A DNA stretch of 6,069 nt from a virus. Lineage: Duplodnaviria > Heunggongvirae > Uroviricota > Caudoviricetes. Below are positions 1-5,815 of the stretch, piece after piece. The translations under genes and the position numbers were made by a program. Below the pieces are notes generated by a model, which saw only the letters and a program-made list of their open reading frames with translations, made no database searches and had not been told where the DNA came from. The first letter of the stretch is position 1; each line of letters opens with the position of its first letter. The stretch lies in the IMG/VR virus record IMGVR_UViG_2713896896_000013. One strand, 5' to 3'.

Positions 1-1428
1 GTGAAATTATTCAGATTCTCTAAAGTAAAAATTGCAGAGCTGCCAACGCCGGAGCATGGACAGGCCGAATATGGTGATACGGAGGTTAACGGGCTGCGTG
101 TCCGTGTGGGTTCGTCTGGTGTGAAAAGTTTCTGCATTTCCCGTAAGCGTAACGGAAAATTTATTCGTGCAACGCTGGGGCGTTTTCCTGATCTGAGCGT
201 GGATAATGCCAGGGCGAAAGCAATGGAACTTCTCGGAGAAGTCGCCACAACGGGGATAAATCCGAACATAGCGAAGCGCACGAACAACAAGGCCATGATA
301 ACGCTGAATGAGGCACTTGAAGCCTACATAAAAAATCGTGGCCACCGCCTGAAACCCGCCACAGAAAAACAGTACCGCAGCATATTACAGAATTATTCCG
401 GTGACTGGATGGTGCATACCCTCGCCAGTATTACCCGCGAACGTGTGGAACAGCGGCATAAGGCCGTTACCGACGGGGCTGTATGGTTCGGTGCTGATAA
501 AACCACGTTACGGGCTGGGGTTGGTACAGGAAGCAAGGCACAGGCCGATTTATGGGCGCGTGCGCTGCGTGCTGTGTGTCGGTTTGCGCATGATCATTAC
601 CGTGATGATGCGGGTAATACTCTTTTACCGGATCCGCCGACGCTTGTACTGAGCACAAAACGGCAGTGGCACGGAACGGTAAGAAAAACGGAACGTATCC
701 GCCTGCATGATTTTCCCCGCTGGTTTGCTGCTGTAGCTGCTGTACGCGACCAGGGCGAACAGGAAAGGGATGATATAGCGGTGACGGTATGTGATGCCGT
801 GGAAATGGCGCTTTTTACCGGACTGAGGAAATCAGAAATTTTTGGCCTTACGTGGGATCGCGTGAATATGGGCGGTCGTTTTTTCTGGATAGACACCACG
901 AAAAACGGGGATCCGCTCGAATTACCGATTACTGATACGTTGCGGGAAATGTTCCACCGTCGACTGAAAATAAAAAACGCTGATGATGTTCTGGTGTTTC
1001 CTGGTGTGAAGGGCGTTATCCAGGAGACACGGCACATCATAGACCGGATAAGCGCGGCTACTGTTCCTGAGTCGAACGATGAAATGCTCTCCCCTGTACC
1101 ATTCAAATGGCACGATGCGCGCCGGACGTTCGGGACGGTTGCCGAACTGGTGGGCGTGGGTAATTACATCCTCAAGCGCCTGATGAATCACCGTACTATG
1201 CGAAGTGCCGACGTAACGCAGGGATATTTACATTTTGGTGCTGATGAACTGCTGGAGCCAGCGTCACGGATAGAACGGGCAATTCTGGAACATGCCGGGC
1301 TGGTGGAGAGTAAAAAATCTATCGATGCGCAATTGCTTTCCGCACTGGAGAGTATGAGTGACAGTGAGAAACGCGCATTACTATTTAGTATCGTTAATTC
1401 AAATGGTGGTTTGAATGTCAGAAAATAA
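1..1428 (+). CDS. int: Tyrosine-type site-specific integrase (phage integrase family, P4-like)
   Basis: 475-aa ORF starting at GTG at window position 1, so the upstream RBS is not visible and the N-terminus may be slightly incomplete. The N-terminal region resembles an integrase arm-binding domain (GLRVRVGSSGVKSFCISRKRNGKF...). The C-terminal half carries the tyrosine recombinase catalytic signature in order: R in LFTGLRKSE, H-x-x-R in WHDARRTFGT, catalytic Y in VTQGYLHF. Stop TAA at 1426-1428. A hand count of one stretch (61-120) gives 35/60 G+C. Confidence 0.9.
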   Translation: MKLFRFSKVKIAELPTPEHGQAEYGDTEVNGLRVRVGSSGVKSFCISRKRNGKFIRATLGRFPDLSVDNARAKAMELLGEVATTGINPNIAKRTNNKAMITLNEALEAYIKNRGHRLKPATEKQYRSILQNYSGDWMVHTLASITRERVEQRHKAVTDGAVWFGADKTTLRAGVGTGSKAQADLWARALRAVCRFAHDHYRDDAGNTLLPDPPTLVLSTKRQWHGTVRKTERIRLHDFPRWFAAVAAVRDQGEQERDDIAVTVCDAVEMALFTGLRKSEIFGLTWDRVNMGGRFFWIDTTKNGDPLELPITDTLREMFHRRLKIKNADDVLVFPGVKGVIQETRHIIDRISAATVPESNDEMLSPVPFKWHDARRTFGTVAELVGVGNYILKRLMNHRTMRSADVTQGYLHFGADELLEPASRIERAILEHAGLVESKKSIDAQLLSALESMSDSEKRALLFSIVNSNGGLNVRK

Positions 1429-2101
1429 AATCATTGCTGCAATAGAATTTGACCATAATGATGCGAAGGATATGAATACTATTGCAGATTATATTAGAGA
1501 TGAACTGGCGTCTTCTTTTGTAAAAAAAACGATATGCGATATGGCAAATATCACACCATCTAAAATGTCTCTGGAGGAGAGATTATCATTATCGTCAGAG
1601 ATAGAAAATAAGGATTTAAAAGTTAATATTTCTGTATGTGCCGGGTATGAAGATGATTTTGATAAAAAATTTAATAGTGCATATTCAGAATTCAATGATA
1701 TTTTGAAAGCTGCCATTATATTTGAAGTTCTTGGTTTCAACAGACTTGCAGATCAGTTACGTGAAAGATATGCGATTTTAGTGTCGGAGAATTTATTAAA
1801 ATCAGTACGTGATATAGCTAATGTAAAGAAAATTATCAGTGAAGACCGTAGTAAAGCAAAGAAAGGAAAAACAAACAGGCATAAATCAACAGCGTTATCT
1901 ATAGCTTGTAACACTTGGAAAAAATACCCTAATGCCAGTTTACCCGGGCTATCCGCAGAGATATACGCGCACTTACGCAATAAATGGAATGATGTCCCTG
2001 TAGTTGGGACTATAGAGAGATGGCTTAAGGAGTCGGGGATGAATCCAAAATTCCCGCAAAAAAACAGGGATTTTAAGTTAGTTACTGGAGACAAAGAATA
2101 A
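1415..2101 (+). CDS. Hypothetical protein, 228 aa, AT-rich accessory gene of unknown function
   Basis: Uninterrupted ORF with ATG at 1415 that overlaps the integrase stop by 14 nt, with a weak GGTGG Shine-Dalgarno at 1405-1409. A hand count of 1441-1500 gives 17/60 G+C, well below the flanking genes. The protein is rich in K/E/D/N/I and I recognise no catalytic motif, transmembrane segment or signal peptide. Confidence 0.6.
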   Translation: MSENKIIAAIEFDHNDAKDMNTIADYIRDELASSFVKKTICDMANITPSKMSLEERLSLSSEIENKDLKVNISVCAGYEDDFDKKFNSAYSEFNDILKAAIIFEVLGFNRLADQLRERYAILVSENLLKSVRDIANVKKIISEDRSKAKKGKTNRHKSTALSIACNTWKKYPNASLPGLSAEIYAHLRNKWNDVPVVGTIERWLKESGMNPKFPQKNRDFKLVTGDKE

Positions 2102-2170
2102 ATCCAGTTTTATCCTCTGTAATCCAGATTTCAGCCATGTAAACCAGATATGCGATTTTGTATCTGGTTT
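2101..2170. promoter_or_regulatory. Phased CCAG(AT) repeat array ending in a perfect 10-bp inverted repeat; candidate protein-binding region or weak terminator
   Basis: CCAG occurs at 2104, 2124 and 2144, exactly 20 bp apart, in the contexts aatccag, aatccagat and aaaccagata. A fourth copy is inverted at 2161-2170 (tatctggttt), giving a perfect 10-bp inverted repeat AAACCAGATA (2141-2150) / TATCTGGTTT (2161-2170) with a 10-bp spacer. It sits between the AT-rich gene stop (2101) and the alpA-like start. Confidence 0.35.
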
Positions 2171-2242
2171 TCCTGTCTTCAAGACTTCCCCATCGCTAAA
2201 TAACGTATACCTGTTCTTAATCAGAAGTATACGGTGATACTC

Positions 2243-2431
2243 ATGCATTTAGAAAAAATGACCCGCAAAGAAGCCGCCGAGCATTTGGGGGTAAGTGTCC
2301 AGACTCTTGCTAACTGGGCGTGTACTGGCAAAGTAAAAATCCCTTTTCATAAGCTGGGGCGCAAAGTGCTGTATATGCGCACTGATCTCGATGCTTATAT
2401 TGCATCCACTCGCAGAACGCAGACGGTGTAA
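2243..2431 (+). CDS. alpA: AlpA/excisionase-family helix-turn-helix DNA-binding protein (putative excision or transcriptional regulator)
   Basis: Small ORF with stop TAA at 2429-2431. The translation MTRKEAAEHLGVSVQTLANWACTGKVKIPFHKLGRKVLYMRTDLDAYIAS matches the excisionase/AlpA-type HTH pattern (KEAAE-LGVS...T-..W......P..K-G.). The start is uncertain: in-frame candidates are GTG 2234, ATG 2243 and ATG 2258, none with a strong SD; 2258 gives the most family-typical N-terminus. Confidence 0.75.
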   Translation: MHLEKMTRKEAAEHLGVSVQTLANWACTGKVKIPFHKLGRKVLYMRTDLDAYIASTRRTQTV

Positions 2432-2448: not shown

Positions 2449-2482
2449 CATAAAACAAAGGCGACCCGGATCAGAGGTCGCC
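2449..2482 (-). terminator. Rho-independent terminator-like hairpin, functional on the minus strand
   Basis: Perfect 7-bp GC-rich stem GGCGACC (2460-2466) / GGTCGCC (2476-2482) with a 9-nt loop. Read on the minus strand it is followed by UUUGUUUUAU (complement of 2449-2459). On the + strand the hairpin is followed by agtggg, which is not U-rich. It lies about 90 nt downstream of the minus-strand gene at 2571-2750. Confidence 0.4.
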
Positions 2483-3456: not shown

Positions 3457-3756
3457 ATGAGAACATATTTATCTGGCTTGACTGCCAGCGGTTATGCACA
3501 CCCCAAAATTATCCCCGGCGCTATTTATCTGGATAAGAACGGTAACAGAGTAACGGTAAAAGAACTGATGTTTGATCGTGTTTATTTTATCCGTGATGGA
3601 TATTCATTTCTTAGTTCGCTGAACGTGGAGATCTTTATTTGCAGATTCCGGCGGGAAATCCCGACTTCCAGAAATAACCATGTGTCACGTGTGGATGTGG
3701 ATAAAAAACTACAGGAACTGAAAAACATGATTGCCGCGTGGAGAGAGCAGAAATGA
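3457..3756 (+). CDS. Hypothetical protein (99 aa)
   Basis: ATG at 3457 with an SD-like GGGGA about 10 nt upstream. Its stop TGA (3754-3756) overlaps the ATG of the replication gene (3753-3755) in an ATGA arrangement. No recognisable motif. Confidence 0.6.
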   Translation: MRTYLSGLTASGYAHPKIIPGAIYLDKNGNRVTVKELMFDRVYFIRDGYSFLSSLNVEIFICRFRREIPTSRNNHVSRVDVDKKLQELKNMIAAWREQK

Positions 3757-5570
3757 AAAAAGCGCCAAATTTAAAACACCAGCCGCGTGACAAAATGACG
3801 GAAGTCATCATTTTTGCGGGTAGTGATGCGTGGGCACATGCGAAACAGTGGCAGGAACAGGACGGGCGACTGGCTGGCGATAACGTCCCTCCTGTCTGGC
3901 TTGGAGAGCAACAACTTGCCGAACTGGACAACCTGCAAATCGTACCGGACGGACGCTATCGCGTGCGTCTCTATCAGGCGGGGTTATTGCGTCCGGGGCT
4001 TGTTAATACCATCGGGCAGAAACTGGCAGCGGCAGGTGTCAGGGATGCTGATTATTATCCTGAAGGAATGCACAGCCAGAAACGGGAGAACTGGCGCGAA
4101 TATCTGGAACGTGAGCGGGGAGAGCTGGCGGAAAAGAAAAAGGTAGTTGAACTGCCTGTAAAGAAAAAAGAGCGGGTAAAAGACGATAACGCTTCATCAC
4201 TGGCACTTAACCAGATGGGAGCAAGTCAACGCGGCGAAGTTCTCCTGGCACATTATGGCGGTGAACTGGCGATTCATGCTGACTCTGACACTGTTCACCA
4301 TTACAACGGCGTTGTATGGGAGCCAGTACAGGATAAAGAATTACAGCGAGCTATGGCACAGATTTTCATTGATGCGGAGATCAGCTATTCGCAGAACGCC
4401 ATTAAATCGGCGGTCGATACCATGAAGTTAAGTTTGCCTGTTATGGGGAATACAGCCCGTAACCTGATTGGATTCAGTAACGGGGTATTTGATACCAGAA
4501 CAGGTAATTTTCGGGAGCATAACAAAAACGACTGGTTGTTAATTGCCAGTGAATTACCTTTCAGCCCACCAGCAGAGGGGGAAACGCTGGCAACACATGC
4601 GCCGAATTTCTGGAAGTGGTTACGCCGTTCGGTGGCTGAGAATGACCGCAAGGCGGATCGCGTACTGGCTGCATTATTCATGGTGCTGGCGAACCGGTAC
4701 GACTGGCAGTTATTCATTGAGGTAACAGGTCCAGGGGGAAGTGGTAAAAGCGTGATGGCGGAGATTTGCACCATGCTGGCGGGTAAGGCCAACACAGTAT
4801 CGGCAAGCATGAAGGCGCTGGAAGATGCAAGGGAACGCGCGTTAGTGGTTGGCTTTTCGCTGATTATCATGCCGGATATGACCCGCTACGCTGGTGATGG
4901 GGCAGGAATTAAGGCCATTACAGGCGGTGACAAGGTGGCAATTGACCCAAAACACAAAGCCCCCTACTCAACGCGTATTCCGGCAGTAGTGCTGGCGGTT
5001 AACAATAACGCCATGTCATTCAGTGACCGCAGCGGGGGGATCTCACGTCGTCGGGTGATATTCAATTTTTCGGAAGTTGTACCGGAGAACGAACGCGATC
5101 CAATGCTGGCGGAAAAAATAGAAGGTGAGCTGGCGGTAGTGATTCGCCATCTGCTTACACGGTTTGCTGACCAGGACGAAGCCAGACGCCTGTTATATGA
5201 GCAGCAGAAATCTGAAGAAGCACTGGCGATAAAGCGAGAGGGGGATTCGCTGGTGGACTTCTGCGGCTATCTCATGGCGTCGGTAATGTGTGATGGCCTG
5301 TTAGTGGGTAATGCTGAAATTGTGCCATTCAGCCCACGCAGGTATCTCTATCATGCCTATCTGGCTTATATGAGGGCACATGGGTTTGGTAAACCTGTAA
5401 CACTGACGCGCTTCGGTAAAGATATGCCGGGGGCAATGGCGGAATATGGCAGGGAGTATATGAAACGGAAAACGAAGCACGGTTTGCGTTCAAACGTGAC
5501 ACTGACGGAGGAATCAGAAGACTGGATGCCATCATGTGTATCGGTCACTAATGACGATAGCAAAAATTAA
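3753..5570 (+). CDS. Replication initiator with D5_N-like region and SF3-type P-loop helicase domain (P4 alpha-like / PICI Pri-Rep-like primase-helicase family)
   Basis: 605-aa ORF from ATG 3753 (the track gives a GTG 5 codons upstream at 3738). Walker A motif GPGGSGKS in FIEVTGPGGSGKSVM; candidate Walker B hydrophobic run plus Asp in LVVGFSLIIMPDM. The segment IGFSNGVFDTRTGNFREHNKNDW resembles the D5_N motif that precedes SF3 helicase domains in P4-family primase C-terminal-domain proteins. It is immediately followed by an iteron array. Stop TAA at 5568-5570. Confidence 0.88.
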   Translation: MKKAPNLKHQPRDKMTEVIIFAGSDAWAHAKQWQEQDGRLAGDNVPPVWLGEQQLAELDNLQIVPDGRYRVRLYQAGLLRPGLVNTIGQKLAAAGVRDADYYPEGMHSQKRENWREYLERERGELAEKKKVVELPVKKKERVKDDNASSLALNQMGASQRGEVLLAHYGGELAIHADSDTVHHYNGVVWEPVQDKELQRAMAQIFIDAEISYSQNAIKSAVDTMKLSLPVMGNTARNLIGFSNGVFDTRTGNFREHNKNDWLLIASELPFSPPAEGETLATHAPNFWKWLRRSVAENDRKADRVLAALFMVLANRYDWQLFIEVTGPGGSGKSVMAEICTMLAGKANTVSASMKALEDARERALVVGFSLIIMPDMTRYAGDGAGIKAITGGDKVAIDPKHKAPYSTRIPAVVLAVNNNAMSFSDRSGGISRRRVIFNFSEVVPENERDPMLAEKIEGELAVVIRHLLTRFADQDEARRLLYEQQKSEEALAIKREGDSLVDFCGYLMASVMCDGLLVGNAEIVPFSPRRYLYHAYLAYMRAHGFGKPVTLTRFGKDMPGAMAEYGREYMKRKTKHGLRSNVTLTEESEDWMPSCVSVTNDDSKN

Positions 5571-5581
5571 ACTTATGGAAT

Positions 5582-5815
5582 AACTGTTCACCACTGTTCA
5601 CCCTGTCATAAATATCTTTTATATCAGTATATTATAGGGTGAACAGTTGTTTATGAACTGTTCACCAAACTATTCACTGTTCACCTTTTTGATTGTTTAT
5701 TGAGCTTCAAGGGTGAACAGTGGTGAACAGTTGGTGAATAGTTTTTGTGAAACTGTTCACCCCTTAACATTATGAATTAAAAGAGAAAATATCAAAAGGT
5801 GAACAGGTGAAGGGT
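5582..5815. repeat. Iteron array, candidate replication origin (9-mer GGTGAACAG / CTGTTCACC, both orientations)
   Basis: CTGTTCACC at 5584-5592, 5594-5602, 5658-5666, 5677-5685 and 5753-5761. GGTGAACAG at 5638-5646, 5712-5720, 5722-5730 and 5798-5806, plus a degenerate GGTGAATAG at 5733-5741 and partial copies (ctgtca 5603-5608, ctattcac 5670-5677, ggtgaaggg 5806-5814). Tandem copies are phased at 10-11 bp. AT-rich stretches at 5606-5637 and 5762-5797 could act as unwinding elements. The core octamer TGTTCACC is, as I recall, the alpha-protein binding iteron of the P4 ori and crr. Confidence 0.75.

Follow-up and report, generated by a model that had tools for sequence, protein, structure and literature searches.

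P2 Cox activates the P4 promoter P_LL, whose first gene, vis, is an alpA homologue, through repeated boxes. These Cox boxes are 9-bp direct repeats that lie about one turn apart and are bound by the helper protein. Phased repeats are also known from the Rep/iteron and lambda O/ori systems, which are exchangeable modules of a binder plus its sites, and Xis/HTH_17 proteins typically bind several phased sites. AlpA serves as master activator in Gram-negative PICIs, where it also turns on its own promoter, and these islands have been described without an Stl-like repressor (PMC6092414). Published work reports no master repressor for Gram-negative or capsid-forming PICIs and names no phage inducer of alpA (PMC6092414; PMC11773190).

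Here, we analyzed a window of 6,069 nucleotides from a Caudoviricetes record (IMG/VR IMGVR_UViG_2713896896_000013), in which four short sites lie between an alpA-like gene and the open reading frame that follows int (ORF X, or X). Judged from sequence comparisons, we read the four sites, with moderate confidence, as an array of operators that X would bind cooperatively to control alpA.

Organization of the island and of the alpA control region

The window corresponds to the left end of a capsid-forming PICI/P4-like satellite of ∼11 kb located at tRNA-Ile. Its genes are arranged in the order int, ORF X, alpA, primase, and iterons, and the island combines a P4-type int and a D5/alpha-type primase with TGTTCACC-type iterons (Table 1). 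The overlap between int and X indicates that the two genes probably form an operon. The accession NZ_OW967966 carries two islands, which are two identical copies. A search of Rfam gave no match at 2101–2240, and the only sub-threshold matches were at 2870–2947.

The distal array, which is island-specific, can be told apart from a second control element upstream of alpA, an inverted repeat that lies closer to the gene and is family-wide. This proximal repeat is a separate element outside the array. It is a degenerate copy of the TATCACCG-N16-CGGTGATA element that is found throughout the family just before the alpA ATG, and in the related locus L004 it folds at −14.8 kcal/mol (z −4.6). In a consensus scan of the window, no sigma-70 promoter was called upstream of alpA, and there were only weak, inconsistent candidates. 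A −10-like hexamer ending ∼36–37 nt before the alpA ATG occurs in about a dozen of the scanned relatives and was not called in the window. Relative to a promoter whose −35 is poor, the sites of the array appear to span about −48 to −108, so an activator role fits equally well as a repressor role.

Table 1. Positions of the features discussed in the text, in window coordinates.
Feature	Position	Strand	Remarks
Tyrosine integrase (int), first island gene	1–1428	+	Arm-DNA-bind_3 + Phage_integrase; attL just upstream of the window
ORF X, 228 aa, candidate binder	1415–2101	+	Overlaps the end of int by 14 nt
Site 1, TAAATCCAGTTTTA	2099–2112	+	Core AATCCAGTTT at 2101–2110, AATCCAG(TTT); starts inside the TAA stop codon of ORF X (2099–2101)
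Site 2, AATCCAGATT	2121–2130	+	Near-perfect 10-bp palindrome AATC-CA-GATT
Site 3, AAACCAGATA	2141–2150	+	Left arm of the perfect inverted repeat
Site 4, TATCTGGTTT, inverted AAACCAGATA	2161–2170	−	Right arm; center 20 bp from site 3
Candidate −10 of P_alpA, TAACGT	2201–2206	+	Weak, putative
Proximal inverted repeat, CGTATAC-N16-GTATACG	2204–2240	+	Runs into SD-like GGTGAT at 2233–2238
alpA-like gene, 62 aa, presumed regulated target	2243–2431	+	Pfam HTH_17 1.3e-12; TIGR01764 1e-9; HTH_17/excisionase family
Primase-helicase gene	3753–5570		
GGTGAACAG iteron field of the island	5590–5810		

Geometry, chance expectation, and conservation of the array

An earlier note on this DNA had described CCAG at 2104, 2124, and 2144 and an inverted copy at 2161–2170 in a 20-bp phase. 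This can be read directly from the letters; the register is exactly 20 bp, with CTGG at 2164 as the fourth core. The reported perfect 10-bp inverted repeat with a 10-bp spacer was also confirmed, 2161–2170 being the exact reverse complement of 2141–2150 with the 10-nt spacer TGCGATTTTG between the arms. A repeat search returned a direct pair spaced by 20 and an inverted pair with 10 nt separating its arms. The 3′ end of the array is 73 nt before the alpA ATG.

To calculate the chance expectation, the whole window was shuffled 300 times with dinucleotides preserved. Inverted repeats with perfect 10-bp arms and a spacer of 3–20 nt were expected 0.14 times per window (∼10% of the shuffles have one), and a phased triple, defined as two exact copies of a 7-mer plus a third with ≤ 1 mismatch at an equal lag of 15–25 bp, was expected 0.013 times. 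The sole real triple in the window, 2101/2121/2141, adjoins the inverted repeat, and the motif AAWCCAGAT (≤ 1 mismatch) gave 8 matches against 3.1 expected, 4 of them within 2101–2170. The remaining perfect inverted repeats of the window are part of the GGTGAACAG ori iterons.

A phylogenetic footprint showed that the sites are conserved relative to the spacers, as in an operator array, with mean pairwise identities of 0.81 and 0.43, respectively. The identity was 0.83 for site 1, whose AAATC..GTTT block does not vary among 13 group-A islands, and 0.64 for site 2, which is kept as AATC-NN-G(A/T)T in diverged relatives. For sites 3 and 4, it was 0.86 and 0.89, respectively. Within site 3, AACCAGATA is kept in the window and in L050, L054, L064, L073, and L076; where site 3 varies, in L011 (AACTAGTTA) and L049 (AACCAGTTA), the partner arm changes along with it. 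The 10-nt spacer between the arms is kept in length, not in sequence. Furthermore, among 7 close Escherichia coli copies, all of the SNPs in 2099–2178 (5/5) fall outside the sites.

The X–array–alpA module in related islands

ORF X had been taken for cargo. This ORF is not random cargo: of the 112 sequences (the window and related loci), 101 have an X-like ORF immediately before this alpA subtype, and the distant homologues P0051 and P0068 also have the int–X–array–alpA layout. Conservation of the array in related islands was checked in the non-redundant X–alpA spacers, and short repeated sites were visible in print in 46/46. Most of these spacers contain 2–4 (pseudo)palindromic sites in a 20–22-bp phase, as judged by eye on the printed sequence and not scored per locus, and the sites usually start at the X stop codon. 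A lag analysis gave a peak at 20–21 bp in 17–20 of the 46 loci, against ∼0.7 expected from shuffles, and a second peak at 40–42 bp. Several short (pseudo)palindromic sites in a helical phasing compatible with cooperativity are features of an operator array. In L077/86/88/89, which are relatives without X, AlpA and the proximal repeat are retained, and no phased array was seen by eye.

Across the islands, the arrays belong to at least 7 unrelated sequence types. Listed by the type of the X C-terminal domain (CTD), they include AAATCnnGTTT with AACCAGATA-N10-inverted, TAGCnnGCTA ×4, CATAGCnnGCTATG, TAACGCGTTA, and TTAAGTACTTAA. The L004-type array is TAGCTGGCTA, and L005 shares it. Cores of CCAG/CTGG were found in three E. 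coli array types.

The identity of the X-CTD is uncorrelated with that of AlpA (rho 0.007). Sharing of array 8-mers was correlated with the X-CTD (rho 0.37, p 4e-35; rho 0.12 for AlpA), but the array and the CTD are physically adjacent, and because the array adjoins the X stop codon, physical linkage alone would yield such co-variation. In 271 pairs with AlpA ≥ 80% but CTD < 45% identical, 0.9% of the 8-mers were common, whereas the value was 20% in pairs with both AlpA and CTD similar. The array co-varies with the X-CTD, and not with AlpA, Int/attL, or the RHH protein. The window type and the L004, L003, and L011 types would be natural specificity swaps.

ORF X as a candidate binder

The relatives of X were obtained by an exhaustive HMMER search and by scans of IMG/VR. 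X is a member of an orphan family, for which the exhaustive search of 1.84e9 proteins gave 82 representatives; a word-indexed homologue search and a GTDB scan with a short CTD alignment gave 4 proteins and 1 locus. No match to X was found in Pfam, PHROG, NCBIfam, PADLOC, or PDB or in a fold search, and its C-terminal domain had no significant match to known DNA-binding families. The last helix of X aligned weakly with the AlpA/HTH_17 recognition helix (hhalign P 0.007, probability 5%).

In layout, residues 1–∼80 are variable and acidic and are followed by a helical hairpin (81–149). The C-terminus (∼144–228, ∼85 residues) is basic, and contains a three-helix bundle (157–207) and a tail with the conserved pattern P..P.K..F.LV; on average, the net charge of the last 85 aa is +7.7 and their pI is 9.8. 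AF2 with a 72-sequence alignment gave a pLDDT of 86.9 with a confidently modeled C-terminal three-helix bundle, whereas the pLDDT of the single-sequence model was only 37. By these predicted features and the comparisons above, X appears to be the best candidate for the array binder. An anonymous “accessory” gene beside int thus becomes a concrete candidate regulator with defined, mutable putative binding sites, and genes in the PICI 5′ “defence hotspot” may be regulators instead of cargo.

Other binders and other roles for the sites

The general idea of a cooperative phased-site array controlling alpA, proposed in the earlier note, finds good support in the comparative data, but there is none for the binders named there (an RDF, the integrase, and the RHH protein). 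The RHH protein (YlcI/YnfO) is dispensable for the presence of the array: L002, in which X has the CTD of the window type and a different N-terminal domain, lacks YlcI/YnfO yet has the same array, and L005 has no annotated YlcI/YnfO gene, with a pseudogene in that position. That the sites are integrase arm-type sites is barely credible. Int does have an Arm-DNA-bind_3 domain, but the arms of attL and attR carry GGTATCCTATAGGTATCCT, in the form of GGTATCCT repeats, and not the CCAG motif. Arm-type sites would also co-vary with Int, and Int and attL stay near-identical where the arrays differ; in the E. coli ileX islands L001–L005, Int and the attL arms are the same and the array is completely different. 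The array also lies at a distance from the att sites, ∼2.1 kb away from the core of attL and several kb away from attR, whereas RDF sites would be expected in an att arm near the core. It is very unlikely that AlpA binds the CCAG sites, either for positive autoregulation or as an excisionase, although the habit of Xis/HTH_17 proteins of binding several phased sites and the recurrence of the CCAG/CTGG cores would suit it, as would the known autoactivation of the AlpA promoter in EcCICFT073 (PMC6092414). QTLANWA, the recognition helix of AlpA, does not vary, but the arrays are unrelated and do not follow the specificity of an RDF; for example, L003 has an AlpA core 95% identical to that of the window and an unrelated array with no 8-mer in common. 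We set aside AlpA/RDF sites on this co-variation and on the X-less islands of the same AlpA type, which have no array. What is conserved throughout alongside AlpA is the proximal repeat. Another reading, which we consider highly improbable, is that the hairpin at 2141–2170 is a weak intrinsic terminator for the int–X transcript and that the other CCAG copies are incidental. The hairpin itself is real: as RNA, it folds at −12.8 kcal/mol (z −3.8), is more stable than shuffles, is flanked by AAA and UUUU, and is identical to a terminator-like hairpin in unrelated phages. However, the terminator scan did not call it, and its AT-rich stem (3 G–C pairs among 10–11) and loop of 8–10 nt differ from the G+C-rich stem and short loop of a canonical terminator. 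The U-run is not conserved, being missing in L011, L049, and L073. Most other island types have phased sites but no hairpin, as in array types B, D, and E, and sites 1 and 2 are conserved no less strongly than the arms.

Two further explanations accept the sites as protein-binding sites. In one, which is unlikely, a helper-phage or host protein binds them and switches alpA on, and the link to the X-CTD is mere linkage. The position of the sites upstream of a promoter with a poor −35 is typical of an activator, and the P2 Cox boxes upstream of P4 P_LL are a precedent. Helper phages are also known to induce alpA transcription via an unidentified factor (PMC6092414; PMC11773190). On the other hand, when we searched 2.9 million viral contigs for exact copies of the inverted repeat of the window, 13 of the 20 matches were beside X genes and the other 7 were isolated terminator-like hairpins, and neither helper-phage copies of the array nor a Cox-like array in phage contigs was found in that set. 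The islands without X likewise depend on a helper, yet they lack the array and keep the proximal element, and each of the at least 7 specificity types is always paired with its own X-CTD, for which a binder encoded in cis is simpler. In the other explanation, which is decidedly unlikely though not as remote as binding by AlpA, X binds the array without regulating alpA, and the array is an iteron- or centromere-like nucleoprotein structure for replication, partition, or anchoring, or a roadblock that ends int–X transcription. The 20–22-bp repeats, the mix of direct and inverted copies, and the exchangeable modules recall Rep/iteron and lambda O/ori, and no + strand terminator was called between X and alpA. 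Nevertheless, the island already has a primase-helicase gene followed by its own GGTGAACAG iterons, and the array, which is not beside that gene, is always wedged against the alpA control region; additionally, a roadblock at site 1 would truncate the mRNA of X itself.

Proposed role of X and comparison with known systems

We infer that X binds the array and that alpA is its target. The basic C-terminal three-helix domain of X would read 9–10-bp (pseudo)palindromic sites, its helical hairpin would oligomerize protomers placed two helical turns apart on one DNA face, and its hypervariable N-terminus may act as a sensor. The array occupies the stretch from the putative int–X operon to a weak, apparently activator-dependent alpA promoter, so occupancy by X would gate the AlpA autoactivation switch that starts satellite excision and replication. 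We lean slightly toward X as a repressor, expressed with int and acting as an Stl-like lock or in immunity. A more far-reaching version is possible but doubtful: X may be the helper-sensing master regulator of a lineage of Gram-negative PICIs/capsid-forming PICIs, functionally analogous to Stl of the SaPIs, in which the N-terminus captures a helper-phage protein and a CTD with a new, perhaps very distantly HTH_17-like fold holds the array, locking or unlocking alpA, and the at least 7 interchangeable “immunity” types would set the helper range and the cross-talk between satellites in the same cell. X is not needed in all PICIs, since EcCICFT073 and others that lack it are induced through alpA (PMC6092414).

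Positive autoregulation by AlpA in EcCICFT073/EcCIMP1 acts on a promoter region and a switch of the same kind. These islands have no X gene (PMC6092414), so the published reporter data do not bear on X. In the present island, the array does not co-vary with AlpA, and the AlpA-linked element is the proximal inverted repeat. The P4 P_LL–vis region, which is controlled by Vis and through the helper P2 Cox boxes, is similar in its alpA/vis-type first gene and in the short repeated boxes upstream of a weak promoter; here, however, the sites are 20–22 bp apart and track a satellite-encoded protein. The iteron/Rep systems (plasmid RepA and lambda O) share the 20–22-bp period, the direct repeats with an inverted pair, and the joint swapping of binder domain and sites, but this island has a separate ori with GGTGAACAG iterons beside its primase gene. 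In lambda-type CI/Cro with OR/OL, similar (pseudo)palindromic operators lie about two helical turns apart and are bound cooperatively, and in mosaic relatives, the DNA-binding domain co-varies with the operators and recombines together with them. In contrast, the X sites are downstream of the regulator gene and upstream of a target that is read in the same direction, a divergent promoter pair is absent, and the protein family is unrelated. Stl, the master repressor of the SaPIs/Gram-positive PICIs, has no similarity to X in sequence or fold; it is transcribed divergently and carries its HTH, of the Cro/CI type, at the N-terminus, whereas X is co-oriented, has its candidate DNA-binding part at the C-terminus, and has sites that begin at its own stop codon. 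The likeness lies in an island-encoded, highly diverse regulator beside int that controls the switch of the satellite cycle, a role proposed here for X. The variable part of X could sense helper-phage proteins, and the regulator and its sites would form an exchangeable specificity module.

Repeat Array Between X and alpA

The window covers the left-hand 6 kb of an island of ~11 kb inserted at tRNA-Ile in E. coli, with nfeF and mug on either side (locus L001). To the right of the window, the island carries tail-related genes and a fused prohead protease-capsid gene, and it was therefore interpreted as a capsid-forming PICI/P4-like satellite. Direct reading of the interval between alpA and the ORF upstream of it, designated X, gave four sites, the first of which overlaps the TAA stop codon of X (2099-2101). 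The CCAG/CTGG cores start at 2104, 2124, 2144, and 2164, and a repeat search of the window recovered the inverted pair as well as a direct pair spaced by 20. Shuffling the window 300 times with dinucleotides preserved gave an expectation of 0.14 perfect 10-bp inverted repeats with a short spacer and 0.013 phased 7-mer triples. The array contains the sole phased 7-mer triple in the window, adjoining the inverted repeat, and the other perfect 10-bp inverted repeats are accounted for by the iteron field. The CCAG sites phased at 20 bp with an inverted last copy, as described in the earlier note, were thus confirmed and are not attributable to chance.

Features of the window and of related loci (window coordinates unless a locus is named)
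Feature	Sequence	Position	Remarks
Integrase gene (int)		1-1428	
ORF X		1415-2101	14-nt overlap with int
Site 1	AATCCAGTTT	2101	
Site 2	AATCCAGATT	2121	
Site 3	AAACCAGATA	2141	
Site 4	TATCTGGTTT	2161	after 10-nt spacer; exact reverse complement of 2141-2150
Proximal repeat, window version	CGTATAC-N16-GTATACG	2204-2233	degenerate; within 2196-2242
Proximal repeat, L004 version		L004 2885-2925	folds at -14.8 kcal/mol, z -4.6
HTH_17/AlpA-like gene (alpA)		2243-2431	
Terminator-like hairpin		2460-2482 (minus)	G+C-rich, then T-run; 3' of YlcI/YnfO gene, facing alpA
YlcI/YnfO RHH-like gene			minus strand
Sub-threshold Rfam matches		within 2850-2947	both strands: symR, 29.6 bits (minus); R1162 antisense RNA, 28.9 bits (plus)
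Terminator-like hairpin		2864-2850 (minus)	
Icd-like and DUF4222 genes			in window
D5/P4-alpha-type primase gene		3753-5570	
Iteron field	GGTGAACAG / CTGTTCACC	5590-5810	dense direct and inverted repeats 3' of primase gene; the P4-type ori iteron motif (TGTTCACC)
attL		L001 11776-12000	marked by partial tRNA-Ile copy
attR		L001 22700-22860	
Likely Int arm site	GGTATCCTATAGGTATCCT	L001	in both att arms
ATACTT/ATACCT boxes		L001	~10-11 bp apart, between core and arm
Perfect 11-bp inverted repeat	GGTATCCTGGA-N16-TCCAGGATACC	L001	directly 5' of int start
Two palindromic elements	ACCCAGATTTTGGGGGT; TACCCATATTTTGGGTA	L001 22385-22440	near right end of island
Extra small HTH regulator gene		L002 3383-3586; L141 1443-1646	directly after alpA in some islands with window-type arrays

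The hairpin facing alpA places a terminator between alpA and the RHH gene, which are convergent. The region of Rfam matches just upstream of the Icd-like gene may specify a small antisense RNA controlling icd, for which c4 in P1 and cI in P4 are parallels. The island is present twice in one E. coli genome (NZ_OW967966.1), at 777-783 kb (L140) and at 1333-1340 kb (L143), and both copies have the same protein accessions.

Conservation of the X-Array-alpA Module

We collected 105 loci from IMG/VR scans with an X C-terminal alignment and AlpA; together with the window and the E. coli loci, these comprised 112 sequences. An X-like ORF lay directly upstream of this alpA subtype in 101 of them, and the int-X-array-alpA layout was likewise present in two distant homologues (P0051 and P0068). 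By eye, short repeated sites were seen downstream of X in 46 of 46 non-redundant spacers, most of which had 2-4 (pseudo)palindromic sites of 9-13 bp in a 20-22-bp register that usually begins at the X stop codon. The lag spectrum of these loci peaked at 20-21 bp in 17-20 of the 46, as against about 0.7 in shuffles, with a second peak at 40-42 bp. No phased array was seen by eye in four loci that have the same AlpA type and no X (L077, L086, L088, and L089).

At least seven types of site sequence were distinguished, and every type pairs with one X C-terminal group. Window-like X proteins are accompanied by two AAATCnnGTTT sites plus AACCAGATA-N10-TATCTGGTT, L004-like proteins by four TAGCnnGCTA sites, and three more groups by CATAGCnnGCTATG, by TAACGCGTTA, and by TTAAGTACTTAA plus an inverted pair. 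The earlier note had proposed a check for conservation in related islands. Among arrays of the window type, the four sites proved conserved, with a mean pairwise identity of 0.81, against 0.43 in the unconserved spacers. The inverted arms are separated by a gap that is constant in length (10 nt) and variable in sequence, and arm changes come in pairs, both arms being altered together (AACTAGTTA in L011 and AACCAGTTA in L049). All five SNPs within 2099-2178 among seven close E. coli copies fall outside the sites.

Candidate Binding Protein

Four further E. coli islands (L002-L005) occupy the same attachment site. Their attL arms are all but identical, and their AlpA proteins share 77-97% identity, the recognition region being invariant. 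Their X-alpA spacers nevertheless differ: that of L002 is the window array, those of L004 and L005 hold four TAGCTGGCTA-like sites at 21-bp spacing, and that of L003 holds AGCCAGGG/CCCTGGCT sites about 20 bp apart. The X C-terminal groups follow the same division (the window with L002, L004 with L005, and L003 alone). The ORF upstream of alpA, earlier assigned to cargo, is the best candidate for the binder.

The same comparisons bear on the proteins previously proposed to bind the array. The integrase was excluded as the specificity partner because its arm motif, present at both att ends, is unlike the array and is invariant across array types. The RHH protein is not required, since L002 lacks it yet has the window array; no YlcI/YnfO gene is annotated in L005, which shares the L004 array. 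AlpA, the putative recombination directionality factor, is disfavored because its recognition helix (QTLANWA) is the same across all array types and the arrays track the X C-terminal domain (CTD) instead. Across islands, CTD identity and AlpA identity are uncorrelated (rho 0.007), which shows free reassortment of the two modules. The arrays resemble one another in step with the CTD (rho 0.37, p 4e-35) far more than with AlpA (rho 0.12). Where AlpA was ≥ 80% but the CTD < 45% identical (271 pairs), 0.9% of array 8-mers were in common, compared with 20% when the CTDs were also similar. These results suggest that X binds the array, with the main caveat that the array abuts the X stop codon, so that physical linkage alone could yield the co-variation.

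A helper-phage or host protein may instead bind the array, an alternative that gained no support from an exact search of 2.9 million viral contigs: the window's inverted repeat gave 20 matches, 13 adjoining an X gene and seven being isolated terminator-like hairpins in unrelated contigs, with no phage-borne array among the matches. The hairpin at 2141-2170 is more stable than its shuffles, and in islands of the window type it may also serve, to a minor degree, as a secondary terminator. As an explanation of the array, the weak AT-rich terminator previously offered is disfavored, because the stem is AT-rich, the terminator scan did not call it, the U-run varies among relatives, and a hairpin is missing from the majority of array types. 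The separate iteron field beside the primase gene makes a role as origin or centromere unlikely.

Features of Protein X

An exhaustive HMMER search of 1.84 billion proteins yielded 82 representatives of the X family, and no family match was found in Pfam, PHROG, NCBIfam, PADLOC, or PDB. In the confident AlphaFold model (pLDDT 86.9; 72-sequence alignment), an N-terminal domain, small and variable, precedes a long helical hairpin (81-149); a basic linker then leads to a three-helix bundle (157-207, pLDDT about 97), and the protein ends in a conserved tail. Fold searches gave no match. Among 46 relatives, the last 85 residues form a basic stretch (mean net charge +7.7, pI 9.8), and the remainder is acidic. 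A weak hhalign alignment (P 0.007, probability 5%) pairs the final helix and the tail with the recognition helix and wing of AlpA/HTH_17, a resemblance to be taken as a hint and not as a classification.

In the five E. coli islands, the C-terminal ~80 residues are conserved and the N-termini are unrelated. The N-terminal half is swapped between islands with the same CTD, array, int, and alpA (window 1415-1880 vs. L002 2242-2800; L004 vs. L005), and an E. coli recombination break lies inside the X gene (matches begin at L004 2549). Such hypervariability of the N-terminus is characteristic of sensor domains and of domains engaged in an arms race. In L020 / L044 (IMGVR_UViG_2529293142_000032), X is frameshifted into two ORFs and the array is intact.

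Possible Control of alpA

A family-wide inverted repeat, TATCACCG-N16-CGGTGATA, terminates in GGTGAT, an SD-like sequence located 4-6 nt from the ATG of alpA. It is kept irrespective of X and array type, including in the X-less loci, where no phased array was seen; the alpA upstream region is therefore bipartite, with a distal, island-specific part linked to X and a proximal, family-wide part linked to AlpA or RNA structure. The proximal repeat could be an AlpA autoregulatory operator or a 5'-UTR hairpin masking the ribosome-binding site.

In the model best supported by these data, X, co-produced with Int from an int-X operon, would bind the phased sites through its basic CTD. The two-turn spacing would place all protomers on one DNA face, the helical hairpin is a plausible oligomerization element, and the resulting complex would gate alpA transcription. 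In ~12 of the relatives scanned, a weak -10-like hexamer with a poor -35 ends about 37 nt before the ATG; the promoter scan made no call in the window itself, in which TAACGT (2201-2206) would correspond to this hexamer. If this is the promoter, the site centers lie at roughly -48, -68, -88, and -108. This geometry would suit an activator, and also a repressor blocking UP-element or -35 access or int-X read-through. Because X has diversified into exchangeable specificity types, would be expressed together with int, and has a hypervariable N-terminus, we lean slightly toward an Stl-like lock that a helper protein would release.

AlpA is the master activator of Gram-negative PICIs; it stimulates transcription from its own promoter, the helper phage turns it on via a factor not identified, and no repressor is known (PMC6092414; PMC11773190). 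In the PICI literature searched, whose coverage of 5' immune regions was partial, we found no mention of an alpA-proximal upstream operator or of a regulator encoded in the int-alpA interval, and no description of the X family, of sites running from the X stop codon to the alpA control region, or of modular shuffling of X in Gram-negative satellites. A more speculative reading, judged less likely than not, would make X the helper-sensing master regulator that has been missing in these islands. Phased operator arrays and regulator-operator modules as such are already known.
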